Of a stretch of DNA of 32,000 bases, positions 1 through 24,228 are shown piece by piece. Location of the stretch: the NCBI RefSeq assembly GCF_000014265.1, contig NC_008312.1:7620001-7652000 (forward strand), given 5' to 3'. The stretch is from Trichodesmium erythraeum IMS101 (GTDB taxonomy: Bacteria > Cyanobacteriota > Cyanobacteriia > Cyanobacteriales > Microcoleaceae). Below the pieces are notes generated by a model, which ran no database searches, was not told the origin of the DNA, and worked only from the letters and a program-made list of their open reading frames with translations. The translations under genes and the position numbers were made by a program. Every line of letters begins with the position of its first letter. Position 1 is the stretch's first letter.

Positions 1-1452
1 CATCATTGTTAATAACAAGGGATTTTCTGACAATTGCTTAATAGCTGAAGAATCTTTAATTGCCCGTTTTAACCTTTCTCTTTTCCGCTCCTTTTCTCGC
101 TCATCTTGATAAGTCAAATCGTGCCAACGTTGAATAAAAGTTTCAATTTGTTCCGACTCCAAATCTTGCAATATAAAATGATAAAATTCTGCATCCCGGA
201 GTTTTTGTGGCTTATAACCAATTACCCGAGAAGTAACAATAACTTGCACATTTTTATAGTCATTAGTAAACCTATGAATATCAGTAATTATCTGTTCTCT
301 TTTGGCAAGCTCGAAAACTTCATCTAACCCATCAAACATCATAATTGCATTACCATTTTGCAATTTAGTATGAAGTTCTTCCTGAGGTAAATGGCAACTT
401 ACACCACTACCTTTTTCCAAAAAATCTAGAAAACTATTACATTTATTCTCATTATGGTTGCGTACATAAGTCCGCAGTTCAATTAATAGAGGAATTGGGT
501 TTAAAGATAAATCTTTCAGAGGTAATTCTGCCCATTGCAAAGCGATATATTGTAATAAAGTAGATTTACCAGAACCGGGGTCTCCCAGAATAACTAAATA
601 TTTATAGTTGTTATATTCTATTAATTCTAAAACTGAGTGAGTCTGTTGCTCAAAATACCTACGCCGGACACTTTTCAGTTGTTCTTGAGAAAGTTCTGCT
701 TCTAATTGTCTAGTGTCTCTTAATTTGGAGAGATATTCTTTAGGAATTTCATGTATTTGAGGCATAAATTCCTGAGATTCTCGGACATTTTGAGGAATAA
801 ACATTTTCCATAATTTCAATTCATTATAACTATAACCACTGGTCTCTAAACTTTCTAATTTGAGATTTCCATATTGTTCTAGGATTCCTTCTTGATATTT
901 TTTTAAGTCAAATTCTGGTCTGATTTTAATGTCTTTGTTTACAATCTCTTCCAGATTTTTTGAATCTAATATTGACCGTAGTTCTTGGGAATTTCGGATA
1001 ATATTTTTGACATTTCTCTGATGTTGCTTTGCTAGAAATTCCCAGTCAAAATTATCTGGTAAAGGTGGGTTTATTTGTTTCCATGAAATAGCCAGCTTGT
1101 GAGTATCTAAAATTTTGATTTTATTATCAAAAGCACTAATCAAAACCTCTAAAACAGATCCTTCTTTAATAAAAGATTTGAAATATTGAGAATACTTATT
1201 TAAGTCACTTTCACTCAATTCAGCATTTTCTAACTCTTGATATCCTAAGTCTAAAAAATCTTTAATTGCTTGTTTAGTAGCTTTTTTTAAAGGTTCTCCA
1301 TTTGCTATTCCACCAAAAGCATCAGAGAAACTTTGCTTAAAAAAATCTTTAACATAGTCTTCGGCAGCGCCCTTAGCTAATACTCCGACAACTTCATTCG
1401 CAATACATTTAACCGCTTCACTACTTCCCCAAGTAATTAACCATTCAATCAT
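1..1452 (-). CDS. NACHT-type STAND P-loop NTPase, N-terminal 484 codons (C-terminus lies beyond the left window edge)
   Basis: Own translation of the minus strand from ATG (complement of 1450-1452), MIEWLITWGSSEAVKCIANEVV..., stays open to position 1. It carries the canonical NACHT motif series: Walker A YLVILGDPGSGKSTLLQYIAL (complement of ~550-610), Walker-B-like NAIMMFDGLDEV, VQVIVTSR, and ENPLLLTMM at the edge. It is missing from the ORF track only because no stop codon lies inside the window. Confidence 0.85.
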   Translation of the reverse strand, partial: MIEWLITWGSSEAVKCIANEVVGVLAKGAAEDYVKDFFKQSFSDAFGGIANGEPLKKATKQAIKDFLDLGYQELENAELSESDLNKYSQYFKSFIKEGSVLEVLISAFDNKIKILDTHKLAISWKQINPPLPDNFDWEFLAKQHQRNVKNIIRNSQELRSILDSKNLEEIVNKDIKIRPEFDLKKYQEGILEQYGNLKLESLETSGYSYNELKLWKMFIPQNVRESQEFMPQIHEIPKEYLSKLRDTRQLEAELSQEQLKSVRRRYFEQQTHSVLELIEYNNYKYLVILGDPGSGKSTLLQYIALQWAELPLKDLSLNPIPLLIELRTYVRNHNENKCNSFLDFLEKGSGVSCHLPQEELHTKLQNGNAIMMFDGLDEVFELAKREQIITDIHRFTNDYKNVQVIVTSRVIGYKPQKLRDAEFYHFILQDLESEQIETFIQRWHDLTYQDEREKERKRERLKRAIKDSSAIKQLSENPLLLTMM

Positions 1453-5590: not shown

Positions 5591-6445
5591 ATGACAGAAG
5601 AAAAGATGCTTGGTTTATCACGAGTATTTGAGTGTGAAAATTCTCATCCTAGAGGTGATATTGTTTTTGTTCATGGGTTAGCTGGCCACCCCTGGGGGAC
5701 ATGGCATCCTCAAGGTAAAAAAAATAATCAAAATTTGGACTTTTGGCCTTTTTGGTTGGGGCAAGATTTACAGAAAGATGAAATAGCTGTTAATGTCTGG
5801 ACTTTTGGATATGATGCGCCTCGCTTTGGATATGTTGGTGAGGGCATGCCGCGTTTTGACTTAGCAAGTAATCTATGGGAATATCTAGATGTTAATGATA
5901 TAGGCGATGGCCCTTTAATATTTATCACTCACAGTATGGGTGGTCTGGTTGTTAAAGATTTAATTCGCACTGCTCAAAATTTTGATGAGAAAAAAGCTAT
6001 TATCCAACAGACTCAAGGAATAGTTTTTTTGTCTACTCCCCATCAAGGTTCACATCTGGCTAATTTAATTGATAATTTTAATGTCTTGACAAAAGCGACG
6101 GTTAATGTTAAGGAGTTGAAAGCCCATGGGCCTCAGTTACGGGACCTGAACGAATGGTATCGACAAAATATTGAAAATTTGAATATTAAAACTCATGTCC
6201 TTTATGAAACTAAGCCTATGGCTGGGGTTTTGGTTGTAGATGAGGATAGTGCTAACCCAGGAATTAAGGATGTTAAACCTGTTGCTGTTGAAGCAGATCA
6301 TAATTCTATTGCTAAACCTCGAAAAAATGATTTGGTTTATCTTTCCGTAAAAAAGTTTGTAAAAAAATATTTGGTGCCTCCACCTACACGACAAAAGTTA
6401 GAATCAATATATTTGAGGCCCCCCCACTCCCAAAATATTATGTAG
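5591..6445 (+). CDS. alpha/beta-hydrolase (esterase/lipase-type) module, probably the N-terminal effector domain of the downstream NB-ARC protein and cut off from it by a frameshift
   Basis: Oxyanion-type VFVHGLAGHP, nucleophile elbow ITHSMGG (GxSxG), later VVDEDSA and EADHNSIAKP as candidate Asp/His. The ORF ends at TAG 6443-6445, just after a C7 run (6419-6425). Confidence 0.8.
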   Translation: MTEEKMLGLSRVFECENSHPRGDIVFVHGLAGHPWGTWHPQGKKNNQNLDFWPFWLGQDLQKDEIAVNVWTFGYDAPRFGYVGEGMPRFDLASNLWEYLDVNDIGDGPLIFITHSMGGLVVKDLIRTAQNFDEKKAIIQQTQGIVFLSTPHQGSHLANLIDNFNVLTKATVNVKELKAHGPQLRDLNEWYRQNIENLNIKTHVLYETKPMAGVLVVDEDSANPGIKDVKPVAVEADHNSIAKPRKNDLVYLSVKKFVKKYLVPPPTRQKLESIYLRPPHSQNIM

Positions 6446-6516
6446 ACCGCCCCGAATACAGTGACAATTTAAAGGCTAATCTACTGATAGATTCATTAGA
6501 TAGGCCTGCTATTGTC

Positions 6517-9500
6517 GTGACTGCTATCCACGGTTTGGGTGCTGTGGGTAAGTCTACTCTGGCAACCGCTTTGGCTTATGATGGGGATGTACAATCTCGT
6601 TTTTGTGATGGTATTCTCTGGGTGACTTTGGGCCAAGAGCCTAATATTTTGCCTATGCTTGGTCGTTGGGTCCAGAAGTTGGGTGACTATGATTTTAAAC
6701 CGACAAGTGTGGAGGTGACTGTTAATCATCTGCGGATTTTGCTTTCTGATAAGGCTGTGCTTTTGGTGGTGGATGATGCTTGGAATTCGGACCATGCTCA
6801 AATATTTAATCTGGGTGGTCCCCGTTGTCAGGTTTTGGTGACTACTCGGGAAAGGGCGATCGCTGAGGCTTTGAGTGCTAAGACTTATAGTCTGGATGTG
6901 ATGACCTTGGAGCAGTCGATGTTGTTGTTGAGTGGGAGGTTGGGCCGTGAGATTTGGGGAGAGGAGGCTCGGCAGGCGGAGGCTTTGGTTCAGGAGTTGG
7001 GATATTTGCCTTTGGCTTTGGAGTTGGCGGCGGCTCAAGTTGAGGATGGTCTGTCTTGGGGTGTGCTGTTGGAGGATATTCAAGGAGAAGTTGCTCGGTT
7101 GAGAACGTTGGATCGACCGGGGGCGAGGGATGTTGTTGATGAGGCTAGTTTAAAACGGTTGAGTTTGACTGCTTCGTTGAATTTGAGTCTTAAGAGACTG
7201 GAGCCGGAAACTAGGGAGGGTTTGATTTGGTTGGGGATATTGCCGGAGGATGTGAATATTACTCAGGGGATGACGGCTGTACTCTGGGATATGGATGATG
7301 AGCGGGATGCCAGGGATGAGTTGGGGTATTTGCGGAGTAAGGCGTTGTTGTTGGATGGTGTGGCTTTGTCTGATGGTAAGAAGAGTTATCGTTTACATGA
7401 TTTATTTCATCATTTGGCTCGGAATTTGTTGAGTGCTCCCCTAAAGCCAAGGGGTAGGGGTGCTCTGGCGGGGTTGGGTATTGGTCTGGCTGAGGCTCAC
7501 GGAATATTTTTGGAGAAATATAGGAGGTTAACTGATAATTATCTTTGGCATACTTTGCCTGATGATGGTTATATTCATCAGCATCTGGTCTGGCATTTTG
7601 AAAGGGCGGGGATGATAGGGGATATTCATGGGTTATTGGGGGAGGAGTCGAAAAGTGGGGCTAATGGTTGGTATGAAACCTGCGATGGTTTGGGGCGAAT
7701 TGGGATTTTTATTACTGATGTGGCTCGTGCTTGGGAGTTAGCAGAGGTTGACTGGGATGAAGGTCGGTTGGCTCAAGTTGTTGGTTGGCAGTGTCGTTAT
7801 GCTTTGATCACTGCTTCTATTAATAGTTTGGCAGCGAATTTACGAAGGGAGTTATTGGTGGCTTTGGTTAAAAACAATGTATGGAGTCCTGAGCAAGGGT
7901 TGGCTTATGCATTACAAAAGCCAGATCTACTGGATAAAGTAAAATCTCTGGTAATGTTAGTTGATTATTTGCCAGAAAACTTCAAAAAACAGGCGCTTTC
8001 AGAAGCACTGGCTGCTGCTCGACAGACTCAGGATGAAGACGATCGCGCCAAAGCTCTCAGTGTTTTGGCTAAGAAATTGACACCAGAGTTATTACCAGAA
8101 GCTCTGGCTGCTGCTCGACATATTCAGTATGAAGACGATCGCGCCAAAGCTCTCAGTGCTTTGACTGATAAGTTACCAGAGTTATTACCAGAAGCTCTGG
8201 CTGCTGCTCGACATATTCAGGATGAAGACGATCGCGCCCATGCTCTCAGTGCTTTGGCTGAGAACTTGACACCAGAATTATTACAAAAAGCTCTGGATGC
8301 TGCTCGACGTATTCAGTCTGCATGCTATCGCGCCCAAGTTCTCAGTGCTTTGGCTGAGAAATTGATGCCAGAATTATTACCAGAAGCTCTGGCTGCTGCT
8401 CGACAGATTCAGGATGAAGACGATCGCGCCCATGCTCTCAGTGCTTTGGCTGATAAATTGACACCAGAATTATTACCAGAAGCACTGGCTGCTGCTCGAC
8501 AGATTCAGGATGAAGACGATCGCGCCCATGCTCTCAGTGCTTTGGCTGATAAATTGACACCAGAATTATTACCAGAAGCACTGGCTGCTGCTCGACATAT
8601 TCAGGATAAATACGATCGCGCCCAAGTTCTCAGTGCTTTGGCTGATAAATTCCCAGAATTATTACCAGAAGCACTGGCTGCTGCTCGACATATTCAGGAT
8701 AAATACGATCGCGCCCAAGTTCTCAGTGCTTTGGCTGATAAATTCCCAGAATTATTACCAGAAGCACTGGCTGCTGCTCGACATATTCAGGGTGAAACAC
8801 ATCGCGCCCAAGTTCTCAGTGCTTTGGCTAAGAAACTGACACCAGAATTATTACCAGAAGCTCTGGCTGCTGCTCGACATATTCAGCATGATAAATATCG
8901 CGCCCAAGTTCTCAGTGCTTTGGCTGAGAAATTCCCAGAATTATTACCAGAAGCTCTGGCTGCTGCTCGACATATTCAGTCTGAGCGGGGTCGCGCCCTA
9001 GTTCTCAGTGCTTTGGCTGAGAAATTACCAGAATTATTACCAGAAGCTCTGGCTGCTGCTCGACATATTCAGGATGAATACTATCGCGCCCTAGTTCTCA
9101 GTGCTTTGGCTGATAAATTCCCAGAATTATTACCAGAAGCTCTGGCTGCTGCTCGACATATTCAGTCTGAGCGGGGTCGCGCCCACGTTCTCAGTGCTTT
9201 GGCTGAGAAATTCCCAGAATTATTACCAGAAGCTCTGGCTGCTGCTCGACATATTCAGGATGAATACTATCGCGCCCAAGTTCTCAGTGCTTTGGCTGAG
9301 AAATTCCCAGAATTATTACCAGAAGCTCTGGCTGCTGCTCGACATATTCAGGATGAATACTATCGCGCCCAAGTTCTCAGTGCTTTGGCTGAGAAATTCC
9401 CAGAATTATTACCAGAAGCTCTGGCTGCTGCTCGACATATTCAGGATGAATACTATCGCGCCCAAGTTCTCAGTGCTTTGGCTGAGAAATTACCAGCAGA

Positions 9501-10248
9501 ATTATTACCAGAAGCTCTGGCTGCTGCTCGACATATTCAGTCTGAACACTTTCGCGCCCACGTTCTCAGTGCTTTGGCTGAGAAATTACCAGCAGAATTA
9601 TTACCAGAAGCTCTGGCTGCTGCTCGACATATTCAGTTTGAGGAAGCTCGCGCCAAAGTTCTCAGTGCTTTGGCTGAGAAATTACCAGAATTATTACCAG
9701 AAGCTCTGGCTGCTGCTCGACATATTCAGTCTGAGTGGGATCGCGCCCAAGTTCTCAGTGCTTTGGCTGAGAAATTACCAGCAGAATTATTACCAGAAGC
9801 TCTGGCTGCTGCTCGACATATTCAGTCTGAGTGGGATCGCGCCAAAGTTCTCAGTGCTTTGGCTGAGAAATTACCAGAATTATTACCAGAAGCTCTGGCT
9901 GCTGCTCGACATATTCAGTCTGAGTGGGGTCGCGCCCAAGTTCTCAGTGCTTTGGCTGAGAAATTACCAGAATTATTACCACAAGCACTGACTATTGCTC
10001 AAGGGATTAAGGATAAGGAATCTCGCGCCCAAGTTATCGTTGCTTTAGCTGATAAATTGACACAAATGCCAAAAACTGAACTTTACCCACTCTGGCAAGA
10101 CACCCTTCACGCCCGATCCCTCCGCACTCGCCGCGACTTACTCTTAGACATAAGAAAACTAACTCCCGTCATCTTTTATTTAGGAGGTCAAGAAGCAATC
10201 AAAAATACAGCCATTGCTATTCAAGAAATTTCCCGGTGGTGGCCTTGA
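6517..10248 (+). CDS. NB-ARC (APAF-1/R-protein type) STAND NTPase with a 22-unit helical repeat array; the annotated GTG start is probably artificial
   Basis: P-loop GLGAVGKSTLA, Walker B LLVVDDAW, VLVTTRERA, LGYLPLALELAA (GLPLA-type) and an MHD-like YRLHDLFHH, followed by 22 repeats of ELLPEALAAARHIQxxxxRAxVLSALAEK(L/F)P. The same frame is open upstream to 6331 with no ATG. It encodes PPLPKYYVDRPEYSDNLKANLLIDSLDRPAIVV, which looks like the missing linker and beta-1 strand. Confidence 0.9.
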   Translation: MTAIHGLGAVGKSTLATALAYDGDVQSRFCDGILWVTLGQEPNILPMLGRWVQKLGDYDFKPTSVEVTVNHLRILLSDKAVLLVVDDAWNSDHAQIFNLGGPRCQVLVTTRERAIAEALSAKTYSLDVMTLEQSMLLLSGRLGREIWGEEARQAEALVQELGYLPLALELAAAQVEDGLSWGVLLEDIQGEVARLRTLDRPGARDVVDEASLKRLSLTASLNLSLKRLEPETREGLIWLGILPEDVNITQGMTAVLWDMDDERDARDELGYLRSKALLLDGVALSDGKKSYRLHDLFHHLARNLLSAPLKPRGRGALAGLGIGLAEAHGIFLEKYRRLTDNYLWHTLPDDGYIHQHLVWHFERAGMIGDIHGLLGEESKSGANGWYETCDGLGRIGIFITDVARAWELAEVDWDEGRLAQVVGWQCRYALITASINSLAANLRRELLVALVKNNVWSPEQGLAYALQKPDLLDKVKSLVMLVDYLPENFKKQALSEALAAARQTQDEDDRAKALSVLAKKLTPELLPEALAAARHIQYEDDRAKALSALTDKLPELLPEALAAARHIQDEDDRAHALSALAENLTPELLQKALDAARRIQSACYRAQVLSALAEKLMPELLPEALAAARQIQDEDDRAHALSALADKLTPELLPEALAAARQIQDEDDRAHALSALADKLTPELLPEALAAARHIQDKYDRAQVLSALADKFPELLPEALAAARHIQDKYDRAQVLSALADKFPELLPEALAAARHIQGETHRAQVLSALAKKLTPELLPEALAAARHIQHDKYRAQVLSALAEKFPELLPEALAAARHIQSERGRALVLSALAEKLPELLPEALAAARHIQDEYYRALVLSALADKFPELLPEALAAARHIQSERGRAHVLSALAEKFPELLPEALAAARHIQDEYYRAQVLSALAEKFPELLPEALAAARHIQDEYYRAQVLSALAEKFPELLPEALAAARHIQDEYYRAQVLSALAEKLPAELLPEALAAARHIQSEHFRAHVLSALAEKLPAELLPEALAAARHIQFEEARAKVLSALAEKLPELLPEALAAARHIQSEWDRAQVLSALAEKLPAELLPEALAAARHIQSEWDRAKVLSALAEKLPELLPEALAAARHIQSEWGRAQVLSALAEKLPELLPQALTIAQGIKDKESRAQVIVALADKLTQMPKTELYPLWQDTLHARSLRTRRDLLLDIRKLTPVIFYLGGQEAIKNTAIAIQEISRWWP
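7990..10068 (+). repeat. 22 tandem in-frame coding repeats of 93 or 96 bp (31/32 aa) inside the NB-ARC gene
   Basis: Direct reading. Units begin GA(A/G)TTATTACCAGAAGC(T/A)CTGGCTGCTGCTCGACATATTCAG. Several neighbouring units are identical or differ at one base (for example the two DKYD units ~8560-8750 and the DEYY units ~9210-9490). The first and last units are more diverged. Confidence 0.95.
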
Positions 10249-15198: not shown

Positions 15199-16134
15199 AT
15201 GGAGTCATTAACCTATATGTTACGACGTAATTTTTTGTATGCCTCACTGCTTACTCTATCTTTTGCAGTTATTTCATGTAATCAAAGTATTTCTGATAAT
15301 CAAACAGCTAGTTCAACCAATACTACAGACTCCCGTTCCGAATTAATAATGGGGTTAATTCCGGCGGAGAGTAACGAGGAAATGGTGGAAAAGTTTGAGC
15401 CGATGCGGGCCTACATGGAAAAGAAACTAAATCGTCCCATAAAAGTTTTTACTGCTACTGACTATGCCGGTGTGATTGAAGCAATGCGGCAAGATAAAGT
15501 TGATATTGCTTGGTTTGGTCCTCTATCATATGTATTGGCGGAACAAGAAGCTGGAGCAGAAGCATTTGCTACTGGAGTTCGTACAAAAACTGGTAAATCT
15601 ACATATAAAAGTATATTAGTTGTTCCAGGAGATTCCACTGTTCAATCAATTCAGGATTTAAAAGGAAAAAATGTAGCATTTGTTGATCCTGCATCTACTT
15701 CAGGTGGGTTAGTTCCCTCTTACTTAGTGTTAAAAGCAACGGGTCAAAAGCCAAAAGATTTCTTTGGTAAGCTTACCTATGCAGGTTCTCATGATGCAGC
15801 AGGAATGGCTGTAAAAAATCAAACTGTAGATGCAGCAGGTACTAATGATATTACTTATAACAAAATGATCAACAAGGGACTAATTTCCGAAGAGAGTAAT
15901 CGTATTTTGTTGGAATCAGAACCAATACCAGGTTCACCTTTAGCTTATCGTCAGGAATTAGATGAGCAAACAAAGAATAATATTCGTGAGACAGTGTTAA
16001 ATGCTCATAAAGATATTAAAGTGACTGGTTATGGGGATCTTTTGAATTATGAATCTGCCACTCCCAAAGACTACGGGGTTGTCCGCGATATGATTAATAC
16101 CCTGGGAATCGGTCGTGAGGAAATCCTCAAGTAA
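15199..16134 (+). CDS. phnD: phosphonate ABC transporter substrate-binding lipoprotein
   Basis: Lipobox (SFAVISC). PhnD-type motifs: GLIPAESNEEMVEKFEPMRAYMEK, DIAWFGPLSYV, FVDPASTSG, YAGSHDA. It sits in a phn operon. Confidence 0.85.
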   Translation: MESLTYMLRRNFLYASLLTLSFAVISCNQSISDNQTASSTNTTDSRSELIMGLIPAESNEEMVEKFEPMRAYMEKKLNRPIKVFTATDYAGVIEAMRQDKVDIAWFGPLSYVLAEQEAGAEAFATGVRTKTGKSTYKSILVVPGDSTVQSIQDLKGKNVAFVDPASTSGGLVPSYLVLKATGQKPKDFFGKLTYAGSHDAAGMAVKNQTVDAAGTNDITYNKMINKGLISEESNRILLESEPIPGSPLAYRQELDEQTKNNIRETVLNAHKDIKVTGYGDLLNYESATPKDYGVVRDMINTLGIGREEILK

Positions 16135-16995
16135 TAGAGGAATGGTTAATGACTATAACTCTGGTATAGTAGGGCTTTAATAAAGTAACTATTATTATGT
16201 ATAAAAAGCTTTAATAATAGTCTTTTGTATCTTCTGCCTTCACCTACTAAGTAGGGTTTGCTGAAAATTTTTTTTTAGGAAGAGAGCATTGACTTAATTC
16301 TAGAATAACTACTTAATACGTTAAAAAGCATGCCATTATACTGCCAATAACCACAAATAAAATCCATCATAACTAAGCTCAAACTGAATAATAAGCAGAA
16401 AAGCCTGATGGATCAACACGGAGGTTATAGCAGATGGTGTTACAATTGGAGGTTAAGTGTGACCGAATGCAGCTTACACAGATGGTTGTAAATCTAATAC
16501 CAGTAAACTTGGAGAAATTTTTACCAATCAAACAAAACCTCTTTATCCTTGGATGAAAAAAGGCGTTAGTTAATCAAGGCATGAAAAGGAAAATTGAATA
16601 ATTTTAAACATCTGTTATTCAATAGTTTAGCAATTACCAAAAAATACAAATCATACCCTAACTTACCAAGGTCAAACGCCAATATAAATTTAAGAAATGC
16701 GGTCGGCTCGACCGTGAATGTCTGTGGATGAGTAACCGCCGACGGCCTCAGTTGAAGCAGGAAGTAAATATAAATTTGTTACGTTATATGACGCTTTGTA
16801 TCAGTTTTATAGAGCAGTCAGAAGTCACTAAAAGTAATGGTAAGAATTGCCCCTTGATTTTCCGGCGTGGTCAGTCTGAAACCCTGATTGTTTGAGGTTA
16901 AACTACCAAAAAGCCAGTTTTTTTCAAAAAAGGCTATAGCCTCTATATGTCAATGCTTTGAGAATTAATCAGCAAGCCCTCATTACTTAACTATT

Positions 16996-17778
16996 ATGTA
17001 TGTAATTCAAATCAATAAAGCAACTAAGACCTATAACAATGGAACAATAGCAGTTCACCCTACTAGTCTCAATTTTGAGCCAGGAACATTTAACGCTATT
17101 CTCGGACCTAGTGGTGCAGGGAAGTCAACTTTGTTACGAATGATCAATGGGTTGGAGATACCAACTACAGGCGAGATCATTATTCAAGGACAAACTTTAA
17201 CGGCTAAAAATTTGCGTCAAGTTCGATCACGCACAGCAATGGTGTTCCAACAGTTTAATCTGGTGGGTCGTTTGAATGTAATGACCAATATCTTAACTGG
17301 GCGTTTGTATTACATTCCCTGGTGGAGCAGTATTTTGTATATGTTTGGCCAAAGAGATTGGAAAATTGCTCAGTGGGCACTTAATAGAGTCAGCCTAAAA
17401 GAAAAAGCTTGGGAACGGGTTGACCGACTTTCAGGAGGACAACAACAACGGGTAGGTGTAGCGAGGGCTTTGGCACAGCGCCCAGAGGTGATTTTGGCTG
17501 ATGAACCCGTTGCTAGTCTTGATCCAATTGCAAGTGAAGAAATCATGGAGTTACTCAGGGAAATTTGCCGTCAAGATGGGATAACCATTGTAGCAAATCT
17601 TCATCAAGTATCCCTGGCTCTGCGCTACGCTGATCGCGTTATTGGTTTAAATAAAGGACGTGTGGTCTTTGATGATTCCCCACAGGCTTTATCTAACAAC
17701 AAGAACACTTTACGCACAATTTATCAGAGGGAGGATGGTAGTGTAGATGATACCTTGGAAATGGCGGTTACCGACTAG
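16996..17778 (+). CDS. phnC: phosphonate ABC transporter ATP-binding protein
   Basis: Walker A GPSGAGKST, ABC signature LSGGQQQRV, Walker B ILADEP. The PhnC-typical FQQFNLV...NVMTNIL region is present, and phnE follows directly. Confidence 0.85.
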   Translation: MYVIQINKATKTYNNGTIAVHPTSLNFEPGTFNAILGPSGAGKSTLLRMINGLEIPTTGEIIIQGQTLTAKNLRQVRSRTAMVFQQFNLVGRLNVMTNILTGRLYYIPWWSSILYMFGQRDWKIAQWALNRVSLKEKAWERVDRLSGGQQQRVGVARALAQRPEVILADEPVASLDPIASEEIMELLREICRQDGITIVANLHQVSLALRYADRVIGLNKGRVVFDDSPQALSNNKNTLRTIYQREDGSVDDTLEMAVTD

Positions 17779-18544
17779 ACATGGATTTGTACCCCTATCC
17801 TGGGGATTGGGTTTGATTTTGCTGCTAGGGGCATTAGGGTCAACAGCAGTACTGATAGAATTGGATGTCTTACGGTTCCTAAAGTCAAGTGGTAATTTCT
17901 GGCAATTTTTTGGTCAATTGCTGACTATGCCAGATTGGACTTATATACCTAAATTATTACTGAAGATGCTGGAAACTATCGAAATGGGTATTGTTTCTAC
18001 GGCGATCGCTCTTTTGTTTAGCTTACCTTTGGGAGTACTTGCAGCCCGAAATACCTCACCACACCTAGTTTTATATCATTGTATTCGCAATGTTCTCAAT
18101 TTGATGCGTGCCTTACCGGAGTTAGTTTGGGCGTTGGTATTTGTTTCAGCTGTAGGTTTGGGGCCTCTGCCTGGGGTAATGGCACTTATTTTTGTGACAA
18201 CAGGCTTTTTGGGGAAATTTTTGGCAGAAAGTATAGAAGTAGTGGATGTTAATGGAGTTACTGGGGTTAAGTCTACGGGAGCTGGATGGTTGCAAACCTT
18301 AACATTTGCAGTTTTTCCCCTCGCTTTACCAGATTTTATTGGCACTGTTCTTTACATTCTAGATCATAACGTACGAGCCGCAACAATTTTAGGGTTAGTA
18401 GGAGCTGGAGGTATTGGGTATGAGTTAGTGATGAGCATGCGGTTATTTAATTACGGTCGTTTGATATTAATTGTTGCAGCCATTTACATAGTGGTGACAA
18501 TATTGGATCGCTTTTCTGATGTGATTCGGAGTCGGGTTATTTAG
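17747..18544 (+). CDS. phnE: phosphonate ABC transporter permease
   Basis: Multi-TM protein with PhnE-type motifs (MRALPELVWALVFV, GFLGKFLAESIE, AATILGLVGAGGIGYEL). The 32-nt overlap with phnC suggests the real start may lie further downstream. Confidence 0.8.
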   Translation: MIPWKWRLPTRHGFVPLSWGLGLILLLGALGSTAVLIELDVLRFLKSSGNFWQFFGQLLTMPDWTYIPKLLLKMLETIEMGIVSTAIALLFSLPLGVLAARNTSPHLVLYHCIRNVLNLMRALPELVWALVFVSAVGLGPLPGVMALIFVTTGFLGKFLAESIEVVDVNGVTGVKSTGAGWLQTLTFAVFPLALPDFIGTVLYILDHNVRAATILGLVGAGGIGYELVMSMRLFNYGRLILIVAAIYIVVTILDRFSDVIRSRVI

Positions 18545-18580
18545 TTAATTACTTATTACTTTTATCTACCTTGAGGTATA

Positions 18581-19378
18581 TTGATGTTTAATTCGTCATT
18601 GAAATTATTAGACTTACCACCCGCTCCCAGAAATTGGGTTCCTTTGTGGATGAGTCTTGCTGTTTTCCTCATTGGAGTCATGATTTGGCATCTTGGACTA
18701 TCTTTTGGCAGTGTGATCGTAGGTATTGGTAATATTTTTGAATATCTCAGTCGTTATCTTAATCCCGACTTTACTGATGGGCCAAGATATTTGATCCTGA
18801 TGCTACAAACATTAGCGATCGCTCTTTGGGGTACAGTATTAGCTTTTCTTACCAGTTTTTTACTCGCACCTTTGGGAGCAAACAATCTCTCACCACACCC
18901 CTTAATTTATCAGCTTATCCGGGAGTTATTCAACTTTATGCGGGCAATGCCAGACTTGATGCTGGCGTTAATTCTGGTTATTATTCTGGGGCTGGGTCCA
19001 ACACCTGGTATTCTAGCATTAGCAATACATACTTCGGGATTTTTAGGTAAGTTTTTTGCTGAGAGTATGGAACGAGTAAATGTAGGTATTTATGAAGGTT
19101 TACGTTCTACTGGAGCTAATATATCTCAAGTTGTTATCTTTGCAGCAGTCCCTTCAATATTGCCAGAGATAGTAGGATATACCCTTTACATCTTTGATCG
19201 AAATGTCCGAATGGCTTCGGTTTTAGGTTTAGTAGGAGCAGGTGGTATTGGTTTGGAACTTCACGATAATTTACGTTTATTTCGGTACAACCAATCTGCA
19301 GCACTGATTTTAGTGATCCTTGTTAGTATTGTGCTTATTGATTATCTTTCTAGTTGGATACGTCGGAGAATTAGCTAA
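18581..19378 (+). CDS. phnE: second phosphonate ABC transporter permease
   Basis: Paralogous to the previous ORF (MRAMPDLMLALILV, GFLGKFFAESME, ASVLGLVGAGGIGLEL). Its stop overlaps the phnG ATG (TAATG). Confidence 0.8.
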   Translation: MMFNSSLKLLDLPPAPRNWVPLWMSLAVFLIGVMIWHLGLSFGSVIVGIGNIFEYLSRYLNPDFTDGPRYLILMLQTLAIALWGTVLAFLTSFLLAPLGANNLSPHPLIYQLIRELFNFMRAMPDLMLALILVIILGLGPTPGILALAIHTSGFLGKFFAESMERVNVGIYEGLRSTGANISQVVIFAAVPSILPEIVGYTLYIFDRNVRMASVLGLVGAGGIGLELHDNLRLFRYNQSAALILVILVSIVLIDYLSSWIRRRIS

Positions 19379-19842
19379 TGGAACAAGTCGATAATCAATG
19401 GTTACGGGCCCTTACAGCCCATGCTCCAGAAATAGTGATTCAACTAGCAGCTCGACTCACCGAAAGTTGGCAAGTTAGTTATGAAGCTGTTCCCCAAACA
19501 GGGTTGTCATTATTGCAACTACAGGATAGTGTATTGCACGAACCCTACTACTTGGGAGAAATTCCCTTATCAACGGCTTGGGTAAAGTTAAAAATAGGCA
19601 ATGGGCAGAATTATGAAGGAGCAGCCCAAGTAATGAGTGATGTGCCAAATTTAGCCACATCATTAGCAATTTGTGATGCCATTTTTGTGAATAAACTGGA
19701 AGGATGGCAAGAGGTTGCAGATTTAATTGAAAGGGGACAGGTAATTCGCCAAGAAGAAGATAACTTGCGGGGGGCTATACTGGCAAAAACCAGAGTAGAT
19801 TTTTCCTTACTAAATCAGGAGGAAAGCGATGCTGAAAGTTGA
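19378..19842 (+). CDS. phnG: C-P lyase core complex subunit PhnG
   Basis: ~150-aa protein at the conserved position directly before phnH-phnI-phnJ. It is translationally coupled on both sides. The call rests mainly on synteny and size. Confidence 0.7.
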   Translation: MEQVDNQWLRALTAHAPEIVIQLAARLTESWQVSYEAVPQTGLSLLQLQDSVLHEPYYLGEIPLSTAWVKLKIGNGQNYEGAAQVMSDVPNLATSLAICDAIFVNKLEGWQEVADLIERGQVIRQEEDNLRGAILAKTRVDFSLLNQEESDAES

Positions 19843-20407
19843 TTTGCCTGGGATTTGGCAAGATGAAGTACAGCAGCAGATTTTCCGTCAGTTGCTCAAT
19901 TGTATGAGCTTACCAGGGACAATTGCTGATTTGAGTTCATATCTGGGAGAAAGTACTGCTTTAATAGGAGTTTTAGCTGCTTTATTAGACAATACAGTGA
20001 CTCTCCATGATACCCATGAATTAATTGGCCAAAGCGATCGCCATTTTTTAAATAGCCCTACTGCACCCCTAACAGAGGCACGTTTTATCGCAGTAGATGG
20101 AACTAATGCTCCTGATACCAACTTTAACCCTAGTTTGGGAACCCTTGCTAGTCCAGAATTGGGAGCAACAATTGTAATTCAAGGTCAGCACTTGGGAAGT
20201 GGTGAATTAACTTTAAGTTTAACTGGACCAGGAATTTTATCTGCCAAGGAAAACAAGGTAGCATTGAATGGGTTCCATCATGGTTGGTTTTCTCGCCGCC
20301 AAGAATGGATAAGTGCTTTTCCTTTGGGAATTGATCTGATTTTGGTGGATGTTACACAAGTAATGATTATTCCCAGAACAACCCAGACAATTTTAAATTT
20401 GGGATAA
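19829..20407 (+). CDS. phnH: C-P lyase core complex subunit PhnH
   Basis: ~190-aa protein between phnG and phnI. The N-terminal FRQLLNCMSLPG is PhnH-like. It overlaps phnG by 14 nt. Confidence 0.7.
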   Translation: MLKVDLPGIWQDEVQQQIFRQLLNCMSLPGTIADLSSYLGESTALIGVLAALLDNTVTLHDTHELIGQSDRHFLNSPTAPLTEARFIAVDGTNAPDTNFNPSLGTLASPELGATIVIQGQHLGSGELTLSLTGPGILSAKENKVALNGFHHGWFSRRQEWISAFPLGIDLILVDVTQVMIIPRTTQTILNLG

Positions 20408-20498
20408 CTCTAGGGTGGCTTGCTTACGACGTAGCGGGTTTACACCACTAGTCTTCTCCTAGCTAGTAAAATTTAGCAGAAATAAAGAGGATAAAAAA

Positions 20499-21593
20499 GT
20501 GGGATATGTTGCAATCAAAGGTGGAGAAACCGCTATTTCTGAAGCGATCGCTTTATTGGATTTCTTGCGGGCTAAGGATAGTAATGAACCTCCTTTATCA
20601 ATTGGAGGCATTCAGCATCAGCTGCACGCACTCCATAGCCGAGTATTATCAGAAGGGGGAATATACCATCCCAAATTAGCAGCCCTAGCAATTAAACAAA
20701 ATGCTGGAGATACTTTAGAAGCAGCTTTTTATCTGCGTGCTTACCGTTCCACCTGTCCTCGGATTGGTATTACCCCCCTGCAGAAAACCGAGCAGATGCG
20801 CTTAATTCGTCGTATTTCCGCTGCTTTCAAAGAAATACCCGGCGGACAAATGCTAGGTCCTACCTCTGATTATTTGCAACGGTTATTTAGATTTGAACTA
20901 TTAGACGAATCTCCCCAACGCTTCCAGCAAATTGCCAAAACATGGTTGCACAACATACCAGATGAGTGTCTTCCTACTAGTTTCCCCAAAGTCCTGGATA
21001 GCTTGCGGGCACAGAATTTACTACCACCTGTAGAAACAAAACTCCATCAACCCTTTGATATTACCAGGGAACCCCTAGTATTTCCAGTTCCCCGTTCTGC
21101 AGCCTTAGCTACCATGTCTCGTGCTGAAACCGGTTCCCTATTAGGAATTGCCTATTCTAATATGCGGGGTTATGGTGATATTCACCCCACTGTAGCAGAA
21201 TTACGTGTGGGTTATTTACCTGTACTACTACCCCATCCTATTTCTGGAGAATTGATGGAAGCGGGTGATGTGTTAATGACAGAGTGCGAAATTGTCGCCA
21301 TGTACGAAGCACCAACTAAGGATAGCAAACCTACCTTTGGCTTAGGCTATGGTGCTTGTTTTGGGCACAACGAAGTCAAGGCAATTTCTATGGCAATTCT
21401 TGATCGTGCTTTGCAAAAAGGGCAGCAACAGGGAGTAGAAAATCCTTCAGAAGACCCAGAATTTGTCCTCCTCCATGTTGATGGGATTGAATCAATGGGA
21501 TTTGCTTCCCATTACAAAATGCCCCACTATGTAACTTTTCAGTCTGATTTAGATCGGTTGAGAACGACCCAAAAAAAAGGAGAAAGCCTATGA
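20499..21593 (+). CDS. phnI: C-P lyase subunit PhnI (ribosyl-triphosphate-phosphonate forming)
   Basis: GTG start preceded by AGAGGA. The opening MGYVAIKGGETAI is the typical PhnI N-terminus. 364 aa, with an ATGA overlap onto phnJ. Confidence 0.85.
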   Translation: MGYVAIKGGETAISEAIALLDFLRAKDSNEPPLSIGGIQHQLHALHSRVLSEGGIYHPKLAALAIKQNAGDTLEAAFYLRAYRSTCPRIGITPLQKTEQMRLIRRISAAFKEIPGGQMLGPTSDYLQRLFRFELLDESPQRFQQIAKTWLHNIPDECLPTSFPKVLDSLRAQNLLPPVETKLHQPFDITREPLVFPVPRSAALATMSRAETGSLLGIAYSNMRGYGDIHPTVAELRVGYLPVLLPHPISGELMEAGDVLMTECEIVAMYEAPTKDSKPTFGLGYGACFGHNEVKAISMAILDRALQKGQQQGVENPSEDPEFVLLHVDGIESMGFASHYKMPHYVTFQSDLDRLRTTQKKGESL

Positions 21594-22537
21594 ATTCCAT
21601 TGCCAAATCATTCCTTCCTGATATACAGCCTAATTTATTAGCAGTTAATTCCCAAGACCAGAGCCCCACCTATCAATTTGGGTTCCTCGATAGTTTTGCG
21701 AAAAAGGAAATTCGCCGTAGCTTACTCAAAGCTGTAGCTATTCCTGGTTATCAAGTACCCTATTCCTCTCGGGAAATGCCTATTGCCCGTGGTTTCGGCA
21801 CTGGTGGCTTGCAAATTACCTTATCTCTTTTGGGCAAAGATGATGTTTTGAAAGTTATCGACCAGGGCAGCGATGAATCGGTAAATGCTGTAAATATCCG
21901 TAATTTTATCAGCAAAACTTGTCCGGGGGTATCCCTCACAAAACATACTCCTGAAGCAACTATCATTCAAACTCGTCATCGCATCCCTGAGTTTCCTCTC
22001 AAGTTAGGGCAGGTGTTAGTACTACAAGTACCTTACCCAGATCCATTGGTAATTGTGGAAGCTAGCGAAGCCAAGCGCAAACAAATGCATGGAGAAGGGG
22101 ATTATGCTAGATTGTGGGTCAAACTCTATGAAGATATGGTTAAATTCTCTGAAATTACCATTTCTCATCGCTATCCCACTCGCATTAATGGACATTATGT
22201 TATCGATCCCTCTCCCATACCTCGTTTTGATGTACCCAAACTCCACCAATCTTTTGGACTACATCTATTTGGAGCGGGACGAGAAAAGAAAATCTATGCA
22301 GTGCCACCATTTACTGATGCTCAACCCCTATGTTTTGAGGATATTCCCTTTCGGGTGGAGAATTTTGACGATGTTGATGGCCGTCGTCGTCCCTGCCATC
22401 GTTGCGGTTCTACTACCAGCTTTTTAGATGAGTTTCTGGATGAGCAAGGTAATTGTATTTATCAGTGTTCTGATAGTGACTACTGTAACACAATGTTGAT
22501 GCAAGCAAAGGAAGATAGTTATGCAACCAATTCTTGA
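21590..22537 (+). CDS. phnJ: C-P lyase catalytic subunit PhnJ (radical SAM-dependent C-P bond cleavage)
   Basis: Conserved YQFGFLD...KKEIRR, AIPGYQVPYSSREMP and GFGTGG, plus a C-terminal cysteine cluster CHRC...C...C-x5-C consistent with the PhnJ Fe-S and catalytic cysteines. Confidence 0.9.
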   Translation: MNSIAKSFLPDIQPNLLAVNSQDQSPTYQFGFLDSFAKKEIRRSLLKAVAIPGYQVPYSSREMPIARGFGTGGLQITLSLLGKDDVLKVIDQGSDESVNAVNIRNFISKTCPGVSLTKHTPEATIIQTRHRIPEFPLKLGQVLVLQVPYPDPLVIVEASEAKRKQMHGEGDYARLWVKLYEDMVKFSEITISHRYPTRINGHYVIDPSPIPRFDVPKLHQSFGLHLFGAGREKKIYAVPPFTDAQPLCFEDIPFRVENFDDVDGRRRPCHRCGSTTSFLDEFLDEQGNCIYQCSDSDYCNTMLMQAKEDSYATNS

Positions 22538-23351
22538 AGTCCGGGAACTGAGTCAAATTTATGGTCCAGGTTGTCCAGCTTGTTTTACTTCTACTGGTGC
22601 CCAAGTTAATACTAATGTTTGTCCACATTGCGACACTGTTGTTGCTATGCAGCAAGTCTCTTTTGATTTGTATCCAGGGGAAATTTTAGGAGTTATGGGA
22701 GAATCTGGGAGCGGTAAATCTACTTTAGTAAAATGTCTTTATTTTGACCAAATACCTACAAAGGGTCAGGCTATATTTTGGGATAAAGGTAAGCCCCATA
22801 ATTTATTTGAACTCAACGCTGCTCAACAGCGATGGCTGAGAAATCACTGCTTTGGCATGGTATATCAAAACCCCCATTCTGGGTTGAATTTTCAAGTTTC
22901 GGCAGGAGGTAATATTGCTGAAAGATTGTTGATGTCTGAAATGCTTAACTATGGTGTTATTCGCGATCGCGCCCGTTCTCTTCTCAGTCGCACTGAGGTA
23001 TTGATAGAGCGGATGGATGAACTACCATCTAATTTTTCGGGAGGAATGCAACAGCGAGTGCAAATTGCCCGTGCTTTAGCAACCGATCCCCCCCTTTTAT
23101 TTTTAGATGAGGTGACAACAGGTTTGGATTTGTCAATACAAGCAAAAATTCTGGATTTAATTCTAGAAATTCAACAACAGCTTAGGGTGGCTATGATAGT
23201 TGTTACCCACGATTTGGGCGTGATTCGGCTCTTGACATCACGGACTTTGGTAATGAAGTACGGACAAGTAGTGGAAACTGGATTAACTGATCAGGTTTTA
23301 GAAGATCCCCAACATGCTTATACTCAGCAGCTAGTATCATCAGCTTTATAA
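22521..23351 (+). CDS. phnK: C-P lyase-associated ABC-type ATPase PhnK
   Basis: Walker A GESGSGKST, signature FSGGMQQRVQIA, Walker B LFLDEVT. The C-terminal LEDPQHAYTQQLVSS is PhnK-typical. It overlaps phnJ by 17 nt. Confidence 0.85.
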   Translation: MQPILEVRELSQIYGPGCPACFTSTGAQVNTNVCPHCDTVVAMQQVSFDLYPGEILGVMGESGSGKSTLVKCLYFDQIPTKGQAIFWDKGKPHNLFELNAAQQRWLRNHCFGMVYQNPHSGLNFQVSAGGNIAERLLMSEMLNYGVIRDRARSLLSRTEVLIERMDELPSNFSGGMQQRVQIARALATDPPLLFLDEVTTGLDLSIQAKILDLILEIQQQLRVAMIVVTHDLGVIRLLTSRTLVMKYGQVVETGLTDQVLEDPQHAYTQQLVSSAL

Positions 23352-23357
23352 ATAACT

Positions 23358-24101
23358 ATGTTGAATTCAAAAGCCCAACAAGCAAGAGTTTTATCAATCA
23401 AAAATAATTCTCCTTCAGACTTAATTTTACAAGTGAAGGAGCTGACCAAAAACTTTAACTTGCACGAACAAGGTAAAATTTTACCTGGTATCCCAGCAAT
23501 TTCATTGACTGTGAAGTCTGGACAGTTAACCGCCTTAACAGGAGTTTCGGGAGCGGGAAAATCTAGTTTATTGAAATGTATTTACCGCAGTTATTTGCCT
23601 CAGAGTGGAGAAATTCATTATTATACAGCAGAAGGAAACTGGATTGATATCGCTACTGCTAAAGAATATGAAATCCTAAATTTGCGGCGCCAAGAAATCA
23701 GTTTTGTTACCCAGTTTTTGCATTGTCTGCCTCGTCAAACAACTCTGGATGTGGTAGCTAGACCCCTATTTGATTTGGGATATGAACGTTCGGAAGCTAG
23801 GAATAAAGCAGCAATCTTATTAAAAAAAATGCAGTTACCAGAAAGGTTGTGGACAATTTCTCCAGCTACTTTTTCAGGAGGGGAAAAACAGCGAGTTAAT
23901 TTAGCTCGGGGAATAGTGTCGTCTCCTCGTTTGCTTTTACTGGATGAGCCAACAGCTAGTTTGGATGCAGATACCAGTCAGTTAGTTATTGAGTTGATTC
24001 AAAGTGTTAAACAAATGGGTGCTGGAATACTTGCGGTTTTTCATTCTCCAGAGTTAATTAATATCTTAGCTGATAATGTGGTAATGGTTGAATCAGGTTA
24101 A
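23358..24101 (+). CDS. phnL: C-P lyase ATPase subunit PhnL
   Basis: Walker A GVSGAGKSS, signature FSGGEKQRVNLA, Walker B LLLDEPT. It occupies the conserved position after phnK. Confidence 0.8.
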   Translation: MLNSKAQQARVLSIKNNSPSDLILQVKELTKNFNLHEQGKILPGIPAISLTVKSGQLTALTGVSGAGKSSLLKCIYRSYLPQSGEIHYYTAEGNWIDIATAKEYEILNLRRQEISFVTQFLHCLPRQTTLDVVARPLFDLGYERSEARNKAAILLKKMQLPERLWTISPATFSGGEKQRVNLARGIVSSPRLLLLDEPTASLDADTSQLVIELIQSVKQMGAGILAVFHSPELINILADNVVMVESG

Positions 24102-24228
24102 ATAATTTGAGGGAAAGTAAACATTAAAATGTTAGTTCTTATGAAGTTTTATATTGGTTTGATGAAGCAGTTAAGCAATTGTGAATGAGTAAATTATTTA
24201 ATCCAAAATCTAAAATTTTCTAGAAGCT

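Follow-up and report, generated by a model that had tools for sequence, protein, structure and literature searches.

In a 32,000-nucleotide stretch of genomic DNA from Trichodesmium erythraeum IMS101 (contig NC_008312.1, positions 7,620,001 to 7,652,000; hereafter the window) we identified two overlapping open reading frames (ORFs) that together carry the parts of a NOD-like receptor (NLR). The first encodes a predicted alpha/beta-hydrolase and the second, offset from it by -1, an NB-ARC module and a HEAT-like repeat array. This locus is best read as an all-in-one NLR that was split long ago and in which the split has been maintained. It is quite possible, if short of probable, that the sensor half is made by -1 slippage, which would restore the fusion. 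The elements on which this reading turns are as follows.

5591 to 6445, plus strand: ORF1, 284 residues, alpha/beta-hydrolase of PGAP1/DUF676 type (ABG53902.1 / WP_011614196.1)
6331 to 10248, plus strand: NB-ARC / HEAT-like open frame, offset -1 from ORF1, upstream stop at 6328-6330
6349 to 6355, plus strand: A_AAA_AAG heptamer in register with the hydrolase frame; A_AAA_AAR in 9/10 clade sequences
6361 to 6367, plus strand: A7 tract, a second in-register heptamer (A_AAA_AAA) in IMS101
6412 to 6432, plus strand: conserved NB-ARC leader FEAPPLP(KYYVDRPEYS), translated in the -1 frame and spanning the C7 tract
6419 to 6425, plus strand: C7 tract, the frameshift site proposed earlier; present only in IMS101 and one close relative

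The two frames overlap by 115 nt. The NB-ARC frame is open for 1305 codons, 1243 of them from its first ATG, GTG or TTG codon (GTG 6517) to 10248. From the stop at 6328-6330 to GTG 6517 it contains no ATG, GTG or TTG, and upstream of the conserved leader its near-cognate codons are limited to ATA 6367, ATC 6403 and ATA 6409. The native hydrolase domain ends at about 6366, and in the final ~25 codons of ORF1 the NB-ARC leader is read out of frame (tail peptides YLVPPPTR and LESIYLRPPHSQNIM).

The position of the frame change was examined in 10 distinct junctions, taken from Trichodesmium, Okeania, Dapis and related metagenome-assembled genomes (MAGs). Their -1 offset and their hydrolase stop are identical in 10/10. 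Up to about 6348 variation falls at third positions of the hydrolase frame (67/117 sites, codon-phase counts). Between 6368 and 6409 the ratio of nonsynonymous to synonymous substitution rates (dN/dS) is 1.14 in the hydrolase frame versus 0.12 in the NB-ARC frame, and between 6410 and 6442 it is 2.96 versus 0.04. Because the NB-ARC frame is already selected from about 6368, the switch is placed at 6349-6367, a stretch composed of A6-G, T3 and A7 runs, and not at 6419-6425. In-frame relatives (P0124, P0132, P0292, P0293, L060) read ...LSV(K/V)K(F/V)Cxx(I/V)F(A/T/G)(S/F)S... at the junction, and the window fits them on one condition, that its hydrolase frame is followed until KK and its -1 frame from (V)CKKIFGAS. 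Moreover, an in-frame paralogue (L008/P0132), reading KKVCHKIF, has exactly one extra base in the first A run. Because it differs from the window by one base there, the ancestral lesion was a single-base loss at 6349-6358.

The first-pass annotation had taken the region for a single gene broken in the C7 tract, and one added C does give an uninterrupted ORF of 1552 residues. A recent lesion or sequencing error at this site is nevertheless barely credible: relatives without any C tract have the same offset, the NB-ARC frame is under selection upstream of the tract, and the same state is read in the finished IMS101 genome, in an independent strain and in several Illumina assemblies. Sequence analysis, as far as it goes, refutes the C7 lesion; the two ORFs are the conserved arrangement in Trichodesmium, Okeania and Dapis. 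The finished IMS101 genome, strain GBRTRLIN201 and two other assemblies all contain the exact 284-residue ORF1 with its out-of-frame tail, and the same ORF1 is present in many assemblies from metagenomes. Its 90%-identity cluster has 95 members; most of the members read are 284 residues long, and every fetched sequence that reaches the junction has the same tail. A sequencing error or private lesion is ruled out by this common state of IMS101, GBRTRLIN201, three other assemblies and the sampled members of the 95-member cluster. A metagenome scan for the locus returned 2 loci.

Homopolymer tracts close to a frame break also bring to mind a phase-variable contingency locus, in which changes of A6, A7 or C7 length in the DNA would toggle a single full-length gene in subpopulations. 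Three such tracts do lie within 80 nt of the junction, and the second A tract differs among natural Trichodesmium populations, being A7 in IMS101 (KKYL) and A9 in L087 (~2705-2713; KKNL), both from DNA, with A10 inferred for P0243 from its KKKL reading. However, these differences are substitutions (TAT to AAT to AAA) that lengthen the tract and keep the frame, and no in-frame allele occurs among the sampled members of the 95-member cluster or the 10 clade junctions, all of which are in the 'off' frame. We therefore consider phase variation very improbable.

At synonymous divergences (dS) of 0.40-0.54 from the Okeania and Dapis loci, the window hydrolase has a dN/dS of 0.11-0.24 and the first 560 NB-ARC codons have one of 0.19-0.37, and NB-ARC open frames of 1200-1778 codons persist in the AT-rich genomes of the clade. 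These ratios point to purifying selection on both halves and exclude a recent pseudogene. The junction comparison, in turn, indicates that the split predates the divergence of the Trichodesmium, Okeania and Dapis copies.

The same data bear on whether the NB-ARC/HEAT half could be a silent relic, unexpressed in T. erythraeum, beside a hydrolase that is functional alone. In favour of this are the missing canonical start of the NB-ARC half, a decayed hydrolase copy in the same window, and an Anabaena locus of the same family (L035) that has two frame breaks and looks decayed. Moreover, a passage of PMC4143802 describes the IMS101 genome as only about 60% protein-coding. Yet the open frame runs for 1305 codons in a genome of 32% G+C, the NB-ARC motifs are all intact, and the repeat array is kept, with identical codons at 14/27 positions. 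In addition, dN/dS is about 0.24 against Dapis, itself without an ATG, and the split is older than a divergence at dS of about 0.45. A relic is thus improbable.

Selection on the NB-ARC frame from about 6368 means that translation must enter upstream of every canonical start. In 7/10 lineages, T. erythraeum included, that frame has no ATG, GTG or TTG ahead of Walker A. GTG 6517, which sits only 5 codons ahead of the Walker A glycine, was rejected as the true start, as it would drop the conserved leader (dN/dS 0.04-0.25). The codon equivalent to 6367 is ATG in the Okeania SIO subclade (3/10), ATA in 5 sequences, ATC in L092 and AAA in L087; in in-frame relatives it aligns with an internal Ile/Val of the last hydrolase helix. 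Within the junction, at 6398-6405, TTAGAAT is invariant in 10/10 sequences and is preceded by G in 8, giving GTTAGAAT in most. It codes for V-R-I in the NB-ARC frame and L-E-S in the hydrolase frame. TAGAAT is similar to a -10 promoter hexamer, and a transcript from there would be without a canonical start for the conserved leader.

One way of entering the frame is independent initiation. In such a two-protein system the NB-ARC/HEAT protein would be started at near-cognate ATA 6367, ATC 6403 or ATA 6409 (ATG in the Okeania subclade), with the hydrolase acting in trans. Pairs of hydrolase and NLR with matching amyloid-like motifs occur in the same family, the concept having been published (bioRxiv 10.1101/2020.01.06.895854), and many family members are stand-alone genes. 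The first-pass annotation had named separate, independently initiated genes in orthologues as evidence against a single tripartite gene. Separate ORFs are indeed what the orthologues keep; an ATG of its own is available to the NB-ARC gene in only 3/10 of them. That Okeania subclade has clearly reached the two-protein state, and gene callers have annotated ATA or ATC starts in Okeania hirsuta. Moreover, one locus (L004) has an intact NB-ARC gene next to a broken hydrolase. Against independent initiation elsewhere, the 6367 codon is not kept as a start (AAA in L087, ATC in L092) and corresponds to a hydrophobic residue internal to a helix, and near-cognate initiation is inefficient. Nor do the hydrolase tail and the NB-ARC N-terminus have a coupling motif in common, the tail being the out-of-frame leader (dN/dS 1.1-3.0 as read in the hydrolase frame). 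When they were compared for paired amyloid motifs of BASS type, the window tail YLVPPPTRQKLESIYLRPPHSQNIM and leader IFGASTYTTKVRINIF were unlike, being overlapping-frame readings of the same DNA. We therefore regard two independently started proteins as somewhat unlikely for T. erythraeum, and near-cognate initiation as less likely than slippage.

Altered hydrolases were seen at some loci. In L004 (Okeania sp. SIO3B3, positions 1-720) the hydrolase is broken by a ~129-nt insertion after residue 170, with the downstream NB-ARC intact and an inverted duplicate of the C-terminal helix at the contig start; the break could be real decay or a contig-end assembly artefact. L004, which also has its own ATG, is the single exception to A_AAA_AAR among the 10 junctions. 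The NB-ARC proteins P0008 and P0010, from Okeania sp. KiyG1 and an ENA contig, start MT(E/Q)QNMPGLS, the first ~10 hydrolase residues joined to the NB-ARC leader. An internal deletion has removed the hydrolase, and the sensor half is therefore translated from the hydrolase start.

Slippage would account for the window as follows. The ancestor would have been an all-in-one NLR in which a serine hydrolase of PGAP1/DUF676 type was the effector, NB-ARC the switch and a HEAT-like solenoid with hypervariable loops the sensor. A single-base loss at the hydrolase-linker boundary (6349-6358) in the common ancestor would have moved the sensor half to the -1 frame, and selection has kept the split arrangement since. 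Standard decoding yields a free 284-residue hydrolase, and -1 slippage would yield a minor full-length hydrolase-NB-ARC-HEAT product. Ribosomes may slip at A_AAA_AAG (6349-6355) or A_AAA_AAA (6361-6367), or RNA polymerase on the A7 tract, which has become A9 in L087 and, by inference, A10 in P0243. A -1 slip would give ...LSVKKVCKKIF... or ...KKFVKKIF..., the ancestral-type junction of the in-frame relatives; KKVCHKIF of L008/P0132 is the protein that such a slip would give. The sequence fits the X_XXY_YYZ heptamer pattern in the right register, at the place where frame-specific dN/dS requires the frame to change (before about 6368). Moreover, slippage is established for both A_AAA_AAG and A_AAA_AAA, and transcriptional realignment for A tracts of more than 7 (PMC3711429).

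By analogy with other NLRs, a ligand bound to the repeats would free the NB-ARC for nucleotide exchange and oligomerisation. The oligomer would cluster and activate the hydrolase on a lipid or ester substrate, and the infected cell of the filament would be killed or arrested. The sequences show the domain identities, the two frames, the conserved split, selection on both halves and the lack of a canonical start. We infer slippage, this activation logic, the substrate and the immune role, and the proposed function is modelled on how other NLRs work.

The nearest precedents for such decoding are programmed -1 frameshifting and transcriptional realignment at A-rich sites, as in dnaX (A_AAA_AAG in Escherichia coli, A9 in Thermus) and in the transposase fusions of the insertion sequences IS3 and IS1. 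The window has the same heptamer in the correct register and, if slippage occurs, one mRNA would likewise give a short product by standard decoding and a long one by the shift. It differs in that no downstream hairpin or pseudoknot and no upstream Shine-Dalgarno-like element was found.

Several observations weigh against slippage. Downstream of the heptamer RNAalifold found 4 weak pairs (-0.11 kcal/mol) and no conserved structure, and the single-sequence fold was no better than shuffled sequence (z=+1.05); no Shine-Dalgarno-like stimulator was seen by eye upstream. Retention of the heptamer is explicable by the conserved Val-Lys-Lys that it encodes in AT-rich genomes, with p about 0.18 on a rough estimate from third-position variability. 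Unstimulated slippage is as a rule very rare, at 1e-4 to 1e-5 in vivo for canonical translation (PMC9307594). The Okeania subclade has gained its own ATG and one member has lost the hydrolase, so the sensor half can work without a covalently attached hydrolase. Finally, a literature search for this locus gave no transcript or protein data and no papers naming the accessions or guessed locus tags.

The hydrolase carries the following motifs.

5927 to 5944, plus strand: nucleophile elbow THSMGG; Ser115 kept in 14/15 aligned family members
6233 to 6250, plus strand: VVDEDS, with the candidate acid residue
6296 to 6310, plus strand: DHNSI, with candidate catalytic His237, nearly invariant across the 15 family members

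By its predicted fold ORF1 is an alpha/beta-hydrolase. Its AlphaFold2 (AF2) model has a pLDDT of 74.6 and a pTM of 0.78. Almost every one of the best 50 listed Foldseek matches in the PDB is a serine hydrolase, lipase or thioesterase (probability 1.00, E about 1e-6, TM 0.4-0.6), with a designed protein cage at rank 15. The PADLOC models DUF626_VIII (2.2e-21) and Lamassu LmuA (1.9e-6) also match. ORF1 reaches no curated Pfam cut-off, every match being sub-threshold (bits, cut-off in brackets: DUF7379 24.2 (33), PGAP1 19.4 (24.3), DUF676 16.0 (20.3), Abhydrolase_6 20.4 (26.3)), and a PDB sequence search with the hydrolase found no relative. Some homologues do pass a Pfam cut-off (P0140, DUF676, 26.7 bits; P0132, Abhydrolase_6, 30.5 bits). 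The hydrolase call of the first-pass annotation is thus upheld by fold and by PADLOC and not by Pfam thresholds. Of the Ser-Asp-His triad that it proposed, Ser115 and His237 are nearly invariant and the candidate acid (D217 or D219) is not invariant among the 15 aligned members.

The NB-ARC/HEAT half has these features.

6484 to 7032, plus strand: Pfam NB-ARC match, 69.5 bits against a cut-off of 23.5, E=3.4e-19
6532 to 6558, plus strand: Walker A, GLGAVGKST
6760 to 6783, plus strand: Walker B, LLVVDDAW
6832 to 6852, plus strand: sensor-1 TTR motif, VLVTTRE
7000 to 7020, plus strand: GLPL-type motif, GYLPLAL
7387 to 7407, plus strand: LHD (MHD-like) motif, YRLHDLF
7993 to 10058, plus strand: repeat array, ~22 units of 31-32 residues, HEAT-like two-helix solenoid
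10066 to 10245, plus strand: C-terminal cap (MPKTELYPLWQ...ISRWWP), ~60 residues, common to Okeania and Trichodesmium homologues

All five canonical NB-ARC motifs are intact and in order (6532-7407). The NB-ARC module is bona fide and belongs to the NB-ARC (AP-ATPase) clade of signal transduction ATPases with numerous domains (STAND); its PDB sequence relatives are AfsR, APAF-1 and plant NLR chains (best E 1.8e-17). The NB-ARC assignment and the motifs quoted at first pass are therefore confirmed.

So is the solenoid of about 22 helical repeats. Tandem Repeats Finder gave a 93-bp unit in 21.8 copies (8000-10058, 90% matches), and AF2 predicted a helix pair every 31-32 residues in a solenoid (pLDDT 91.4). 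The best natural structural matches of this solenoid are HEAT proteins: the PP2A A subunit (TMq 0.54), SF3B1, karyopherin-beta and CAND1. The Pfam search suggested for the repaired protein thus gave NB-ARC above its cut-off and the hydrolase families below theirs, and no HEAT, ARM or TPR family matched the window protein at E<=0.1; the only Pfam matches of the array were sub-threshold and to unrelated families. One homologue (P0005) has a precomputed HEAT_2 match. Among 20 clean repeat units, codons are identical in all units at 14/27 aligned positions, and variation is concentrated at unit positions 14-17 and 20, with up to nine different residues. Between 8089 and 9972, unit positions 14 and 17 vary as NNT codons (TAT, GAT, TCT, GGT, CAT, TTT, GCT), and the codons flanking them are identical in 20/20 units. 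Fungal SesB-like NLRs likewise have highly similar internal repeats with hypervariable positions. The pattern in the window suggests an array that evolves in concert and has a hypervariable surface, in keeping with a role in binding or sensing. A diversity-generating retroelement was rejected as the source of the hypervariability, with no template copy elsewhere in the window and no reverse transcriptase in the 20 ORFs scanned.

G+C content is 43-48% in the NLR gene (6001-10000) against 30-33% in the flanks, with a GC skew of up to +0.455 across 7001-8000. This could reflect an amino-acid composition rich in Ala, Leu, Glu, Arg and Gly, or a foreign origin.

The logic of effector, STAND NTPase and repeat sensor proposed at first pass, and descent from a single tripartite gene, are supported by in-frame fusions, which are common for NB-ARC and other STAND NTPases. 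In P0298 and P0415 a hydrolase of the family continues in frame into this same NB-ARC subfamily; the family is also joined to NB-ARC-TPR in Trichodesmium MAG_R03, Moorena and Hyella, and elsewhere to NACHT, AAA_35, WD40 and metallophosphatase-GAF modules. Other members occur with bDLD (bacterial Death-like domain), EAD9, or amyloid-like tails matching the neighbouring NTPase. Hundreds of cyanobacterial proteins, bearing TIR, CHAT or EAD11 at the N-terminus, are the nearest relatives of the NB-ARC half (60-78% identity).

The novelty claimed for this architecture was overstated, since alpha/beta-hydrolase NLR-like proteins have already been described by comparative genomics. All-in-one bacterial NLR-like proteins with alpha/beta-hydrolases, and hydrolase/NLR pairs, were surveyed by Dyrka et al. 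2020 (bioRxiv 10.1101/2020.01.06.895854), and alpha/beta-hydrolase effectors in NTP-dependent conflict systems were reported by Kaur et al. 2020 (PMC7159879). A systematic study of STANDs in defence, from 2026, notes the closest Apaf-1 homologues to be cyanobacterial; the words hydrolase, lipase and phospholipase are absent from its main text. Our literature search found no experimental characterisation of this hydrolase-NLR family. The window locus is like the all-in-one bacterial NLRs in its order of effector, NB-ARC and repeats. It differs in that effector and NTPase lie in different frames, in an NTPase half without a canonical start, and in a distinctive 31/32-residue HEAT-like array without a Pfam HEAT, ARM or TPR match.

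Fungal SesB-like NLRs also have a predicted lipase/esterase-type alpha/beta-hydrolase N-terminal to a nucleotide-binding and oligomerisation domain and repeats (for the SesB hydrolase see bioRxiv 10.1101/2020.01.06.895854). They belong, however, to another kingdom and have ANK, TPR or WD repeats. APAF-1 and AfsR are the best sequence relatives of solved structure (E 1.8e-17 to 7e-17 over ~300 residues), but the window protein has neither a CARD nor a SARP DNA-binding domain, and its partial NCBIfam match to AfsR scores 83 bits against an equivalog cut-off of 1430. We know of no frame split in fungal SesB-like NLRs. With Avs and bNACHT the locus would have in common the logic of a sensor, a STAND NTPase and a cell-killing effector; here the NTPase is of the NB-ARC clade. 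The PADLOC comparison suggested at first pass matched the hydrolase with DUF626_VIII and LmuA as above. With the 2023 models, no Avs or bNACHT match was obtained among the window proteins, and besides the hydrolase models there was only a spurious Drt5.

A different junction separates hydrolase and STAND NTPase at Moorena, Symploca, Coleofasciculus-group and Spirulina loci, where the two are parted by one in-frame stop (TAG or TGA, then always C). An element of ~45 nt follows the stop at these positions.

L021, 1196 to 1240
L030, 6832 to 6876
L028, 2265 to 2309
L037, 6832 to 6876
L049, 6889 to 6933
L054, 6949 to 6993
L044, 1791 to 1835
L057, 6850 to 6894

It contains a 5-bp hairpin that is paired in 8/8 sequences, with two covarying pairs, and no Rfam family matches it. 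Past the stop, the Moorena NB-ARC frame lacks any ATG, GTG or TTG before the Walker A Met, yet it shows purifying selection (dN/dS 0.2-0.45). An in-frame version of the linker (L049, 8916-8960; …IHIYEHKSSESEPKKLNPP…FVGR) lacks the stop and also the hairpin (3/5 pairs), so the hairpin goes with the stop codon. The stop-hairpin junction is a candidate for stop-codon readthrough or for a module-boundary element, and is a second hint of recoding or of another junction-specific mechanism in this gene class. Homology of the window junction to the Moorena type was rejected, as the covariance model (R1) had no match in the window at E<=1.

Recoding might even be designed into a group of NLR-like genes in cyanobacteria. 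At the effector-NTPase junction a -1 slip (Trichodesmium, Okeania, Dapis) or stop readthrough (the Moorena-type loci) would then set a fixed, low ratio of full-length sensor to free effector from one mRNA, keeping the self-activating receptor scarce and the effector stocked. We offer this as a rather doubtful generalisation.

Other loci of the hydrolase family were also inspected. Anabaena sp. CCY 0017 (L035, 6939-6963) has the same hydrolase and NB-ARC subfamily at a -1 offset, with a 25-nt overlap and an in-register A_AAC_CCT. A second frame change between NB-ARC core and repeats (8486-8660) weakens it as an independent -1 case, and the locus is probably decaying. The tail of Nostoc P0154 was rejected as an out-of-frame NB-ARC leader, having no NLR downstream. 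At L029, L034, L046 and L048 the hydrolase tail and the N-terminus of the downstream NTPase have a common motif, (R/H)SGG(V/A)YF...(I/V).GD(V/F)V.G.Q.K, of which the L046 tail is a more divergent version (NCTNFKGSVNIGGDFVVGQQNKF). These look like the paired amyloid-type signalling motifs of two-component bacterial NLRs.

Elsewhere in the window the first-pass annotation had named a NACHT gene and a degenerate copy of the hydrolase module, and both were found.

1 to 1452, minus strand: 5' portion of another STAND gene (NNH2 + NACHT), whose complete 1345-residue product, with HEAT_2 matches, is in L001
27014 to 27680, plus strand: decayed hydrolase paralogue pieced from three frames, with THGMGG for THSMGG and truncated before the His

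A 237-residue version of the decayed paralogue from metagenomes (P0249) has an intact N-terminus and the same truncated end. A complete phosphonate uptake and carbon-phosphorus lyase cluster occupies 15199-25377 (phnD, C, E, E, G, H, I, J, K, L, plus a phnM of amidohydrolase type). We take this to be the known Trichodesmium phn operon, unrelated to the NLR. An exact-sequence look-up gave ABG53900.1 and ABG53904.1 as the neighbours of ORF1. Since the genes around it otherwise serve metabolism or transport, the locus is no typical defence island. Synteny of the gene pair is not kept, as it adjoins an acyl-CoA dehydrogenase-like gene in Trichodesmium and glgB in Okeania.

In summary, the architecture is an ordinary one in filamentous cyanobacteria, of a known but uncharacterised kind, and what is new is the conserved split between frames in the absence of a canonical start. 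Effector and sensor halves lie in different frames under selection across three genera, with most lineages lacking an ordinary sensor start, and at this locus the idea that expression of a bacterial NLR depends on slippage can be put to the test. If slippage proves true, this would be, to our knowledge, the first recoding, translational or transcriptional, that sets the dose of a prokaryotic immune receptor, and the Moorena-type stop-plus-hairpin junctions suggest that the principle could be wider. If instead two proteins are made, the locus would be a dated natural example of an all-in-one NLR becoming a two-component system. NLR-like STAND proteins are abundant in multicellular cyanobacteria, and Trichodesmium is a globally important nitrogen fixer whose blooms collapse by regulated cell death. 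A hydrolase-armed NLR in Trichodesmium is a plausible executioner or anti-phage sensor.

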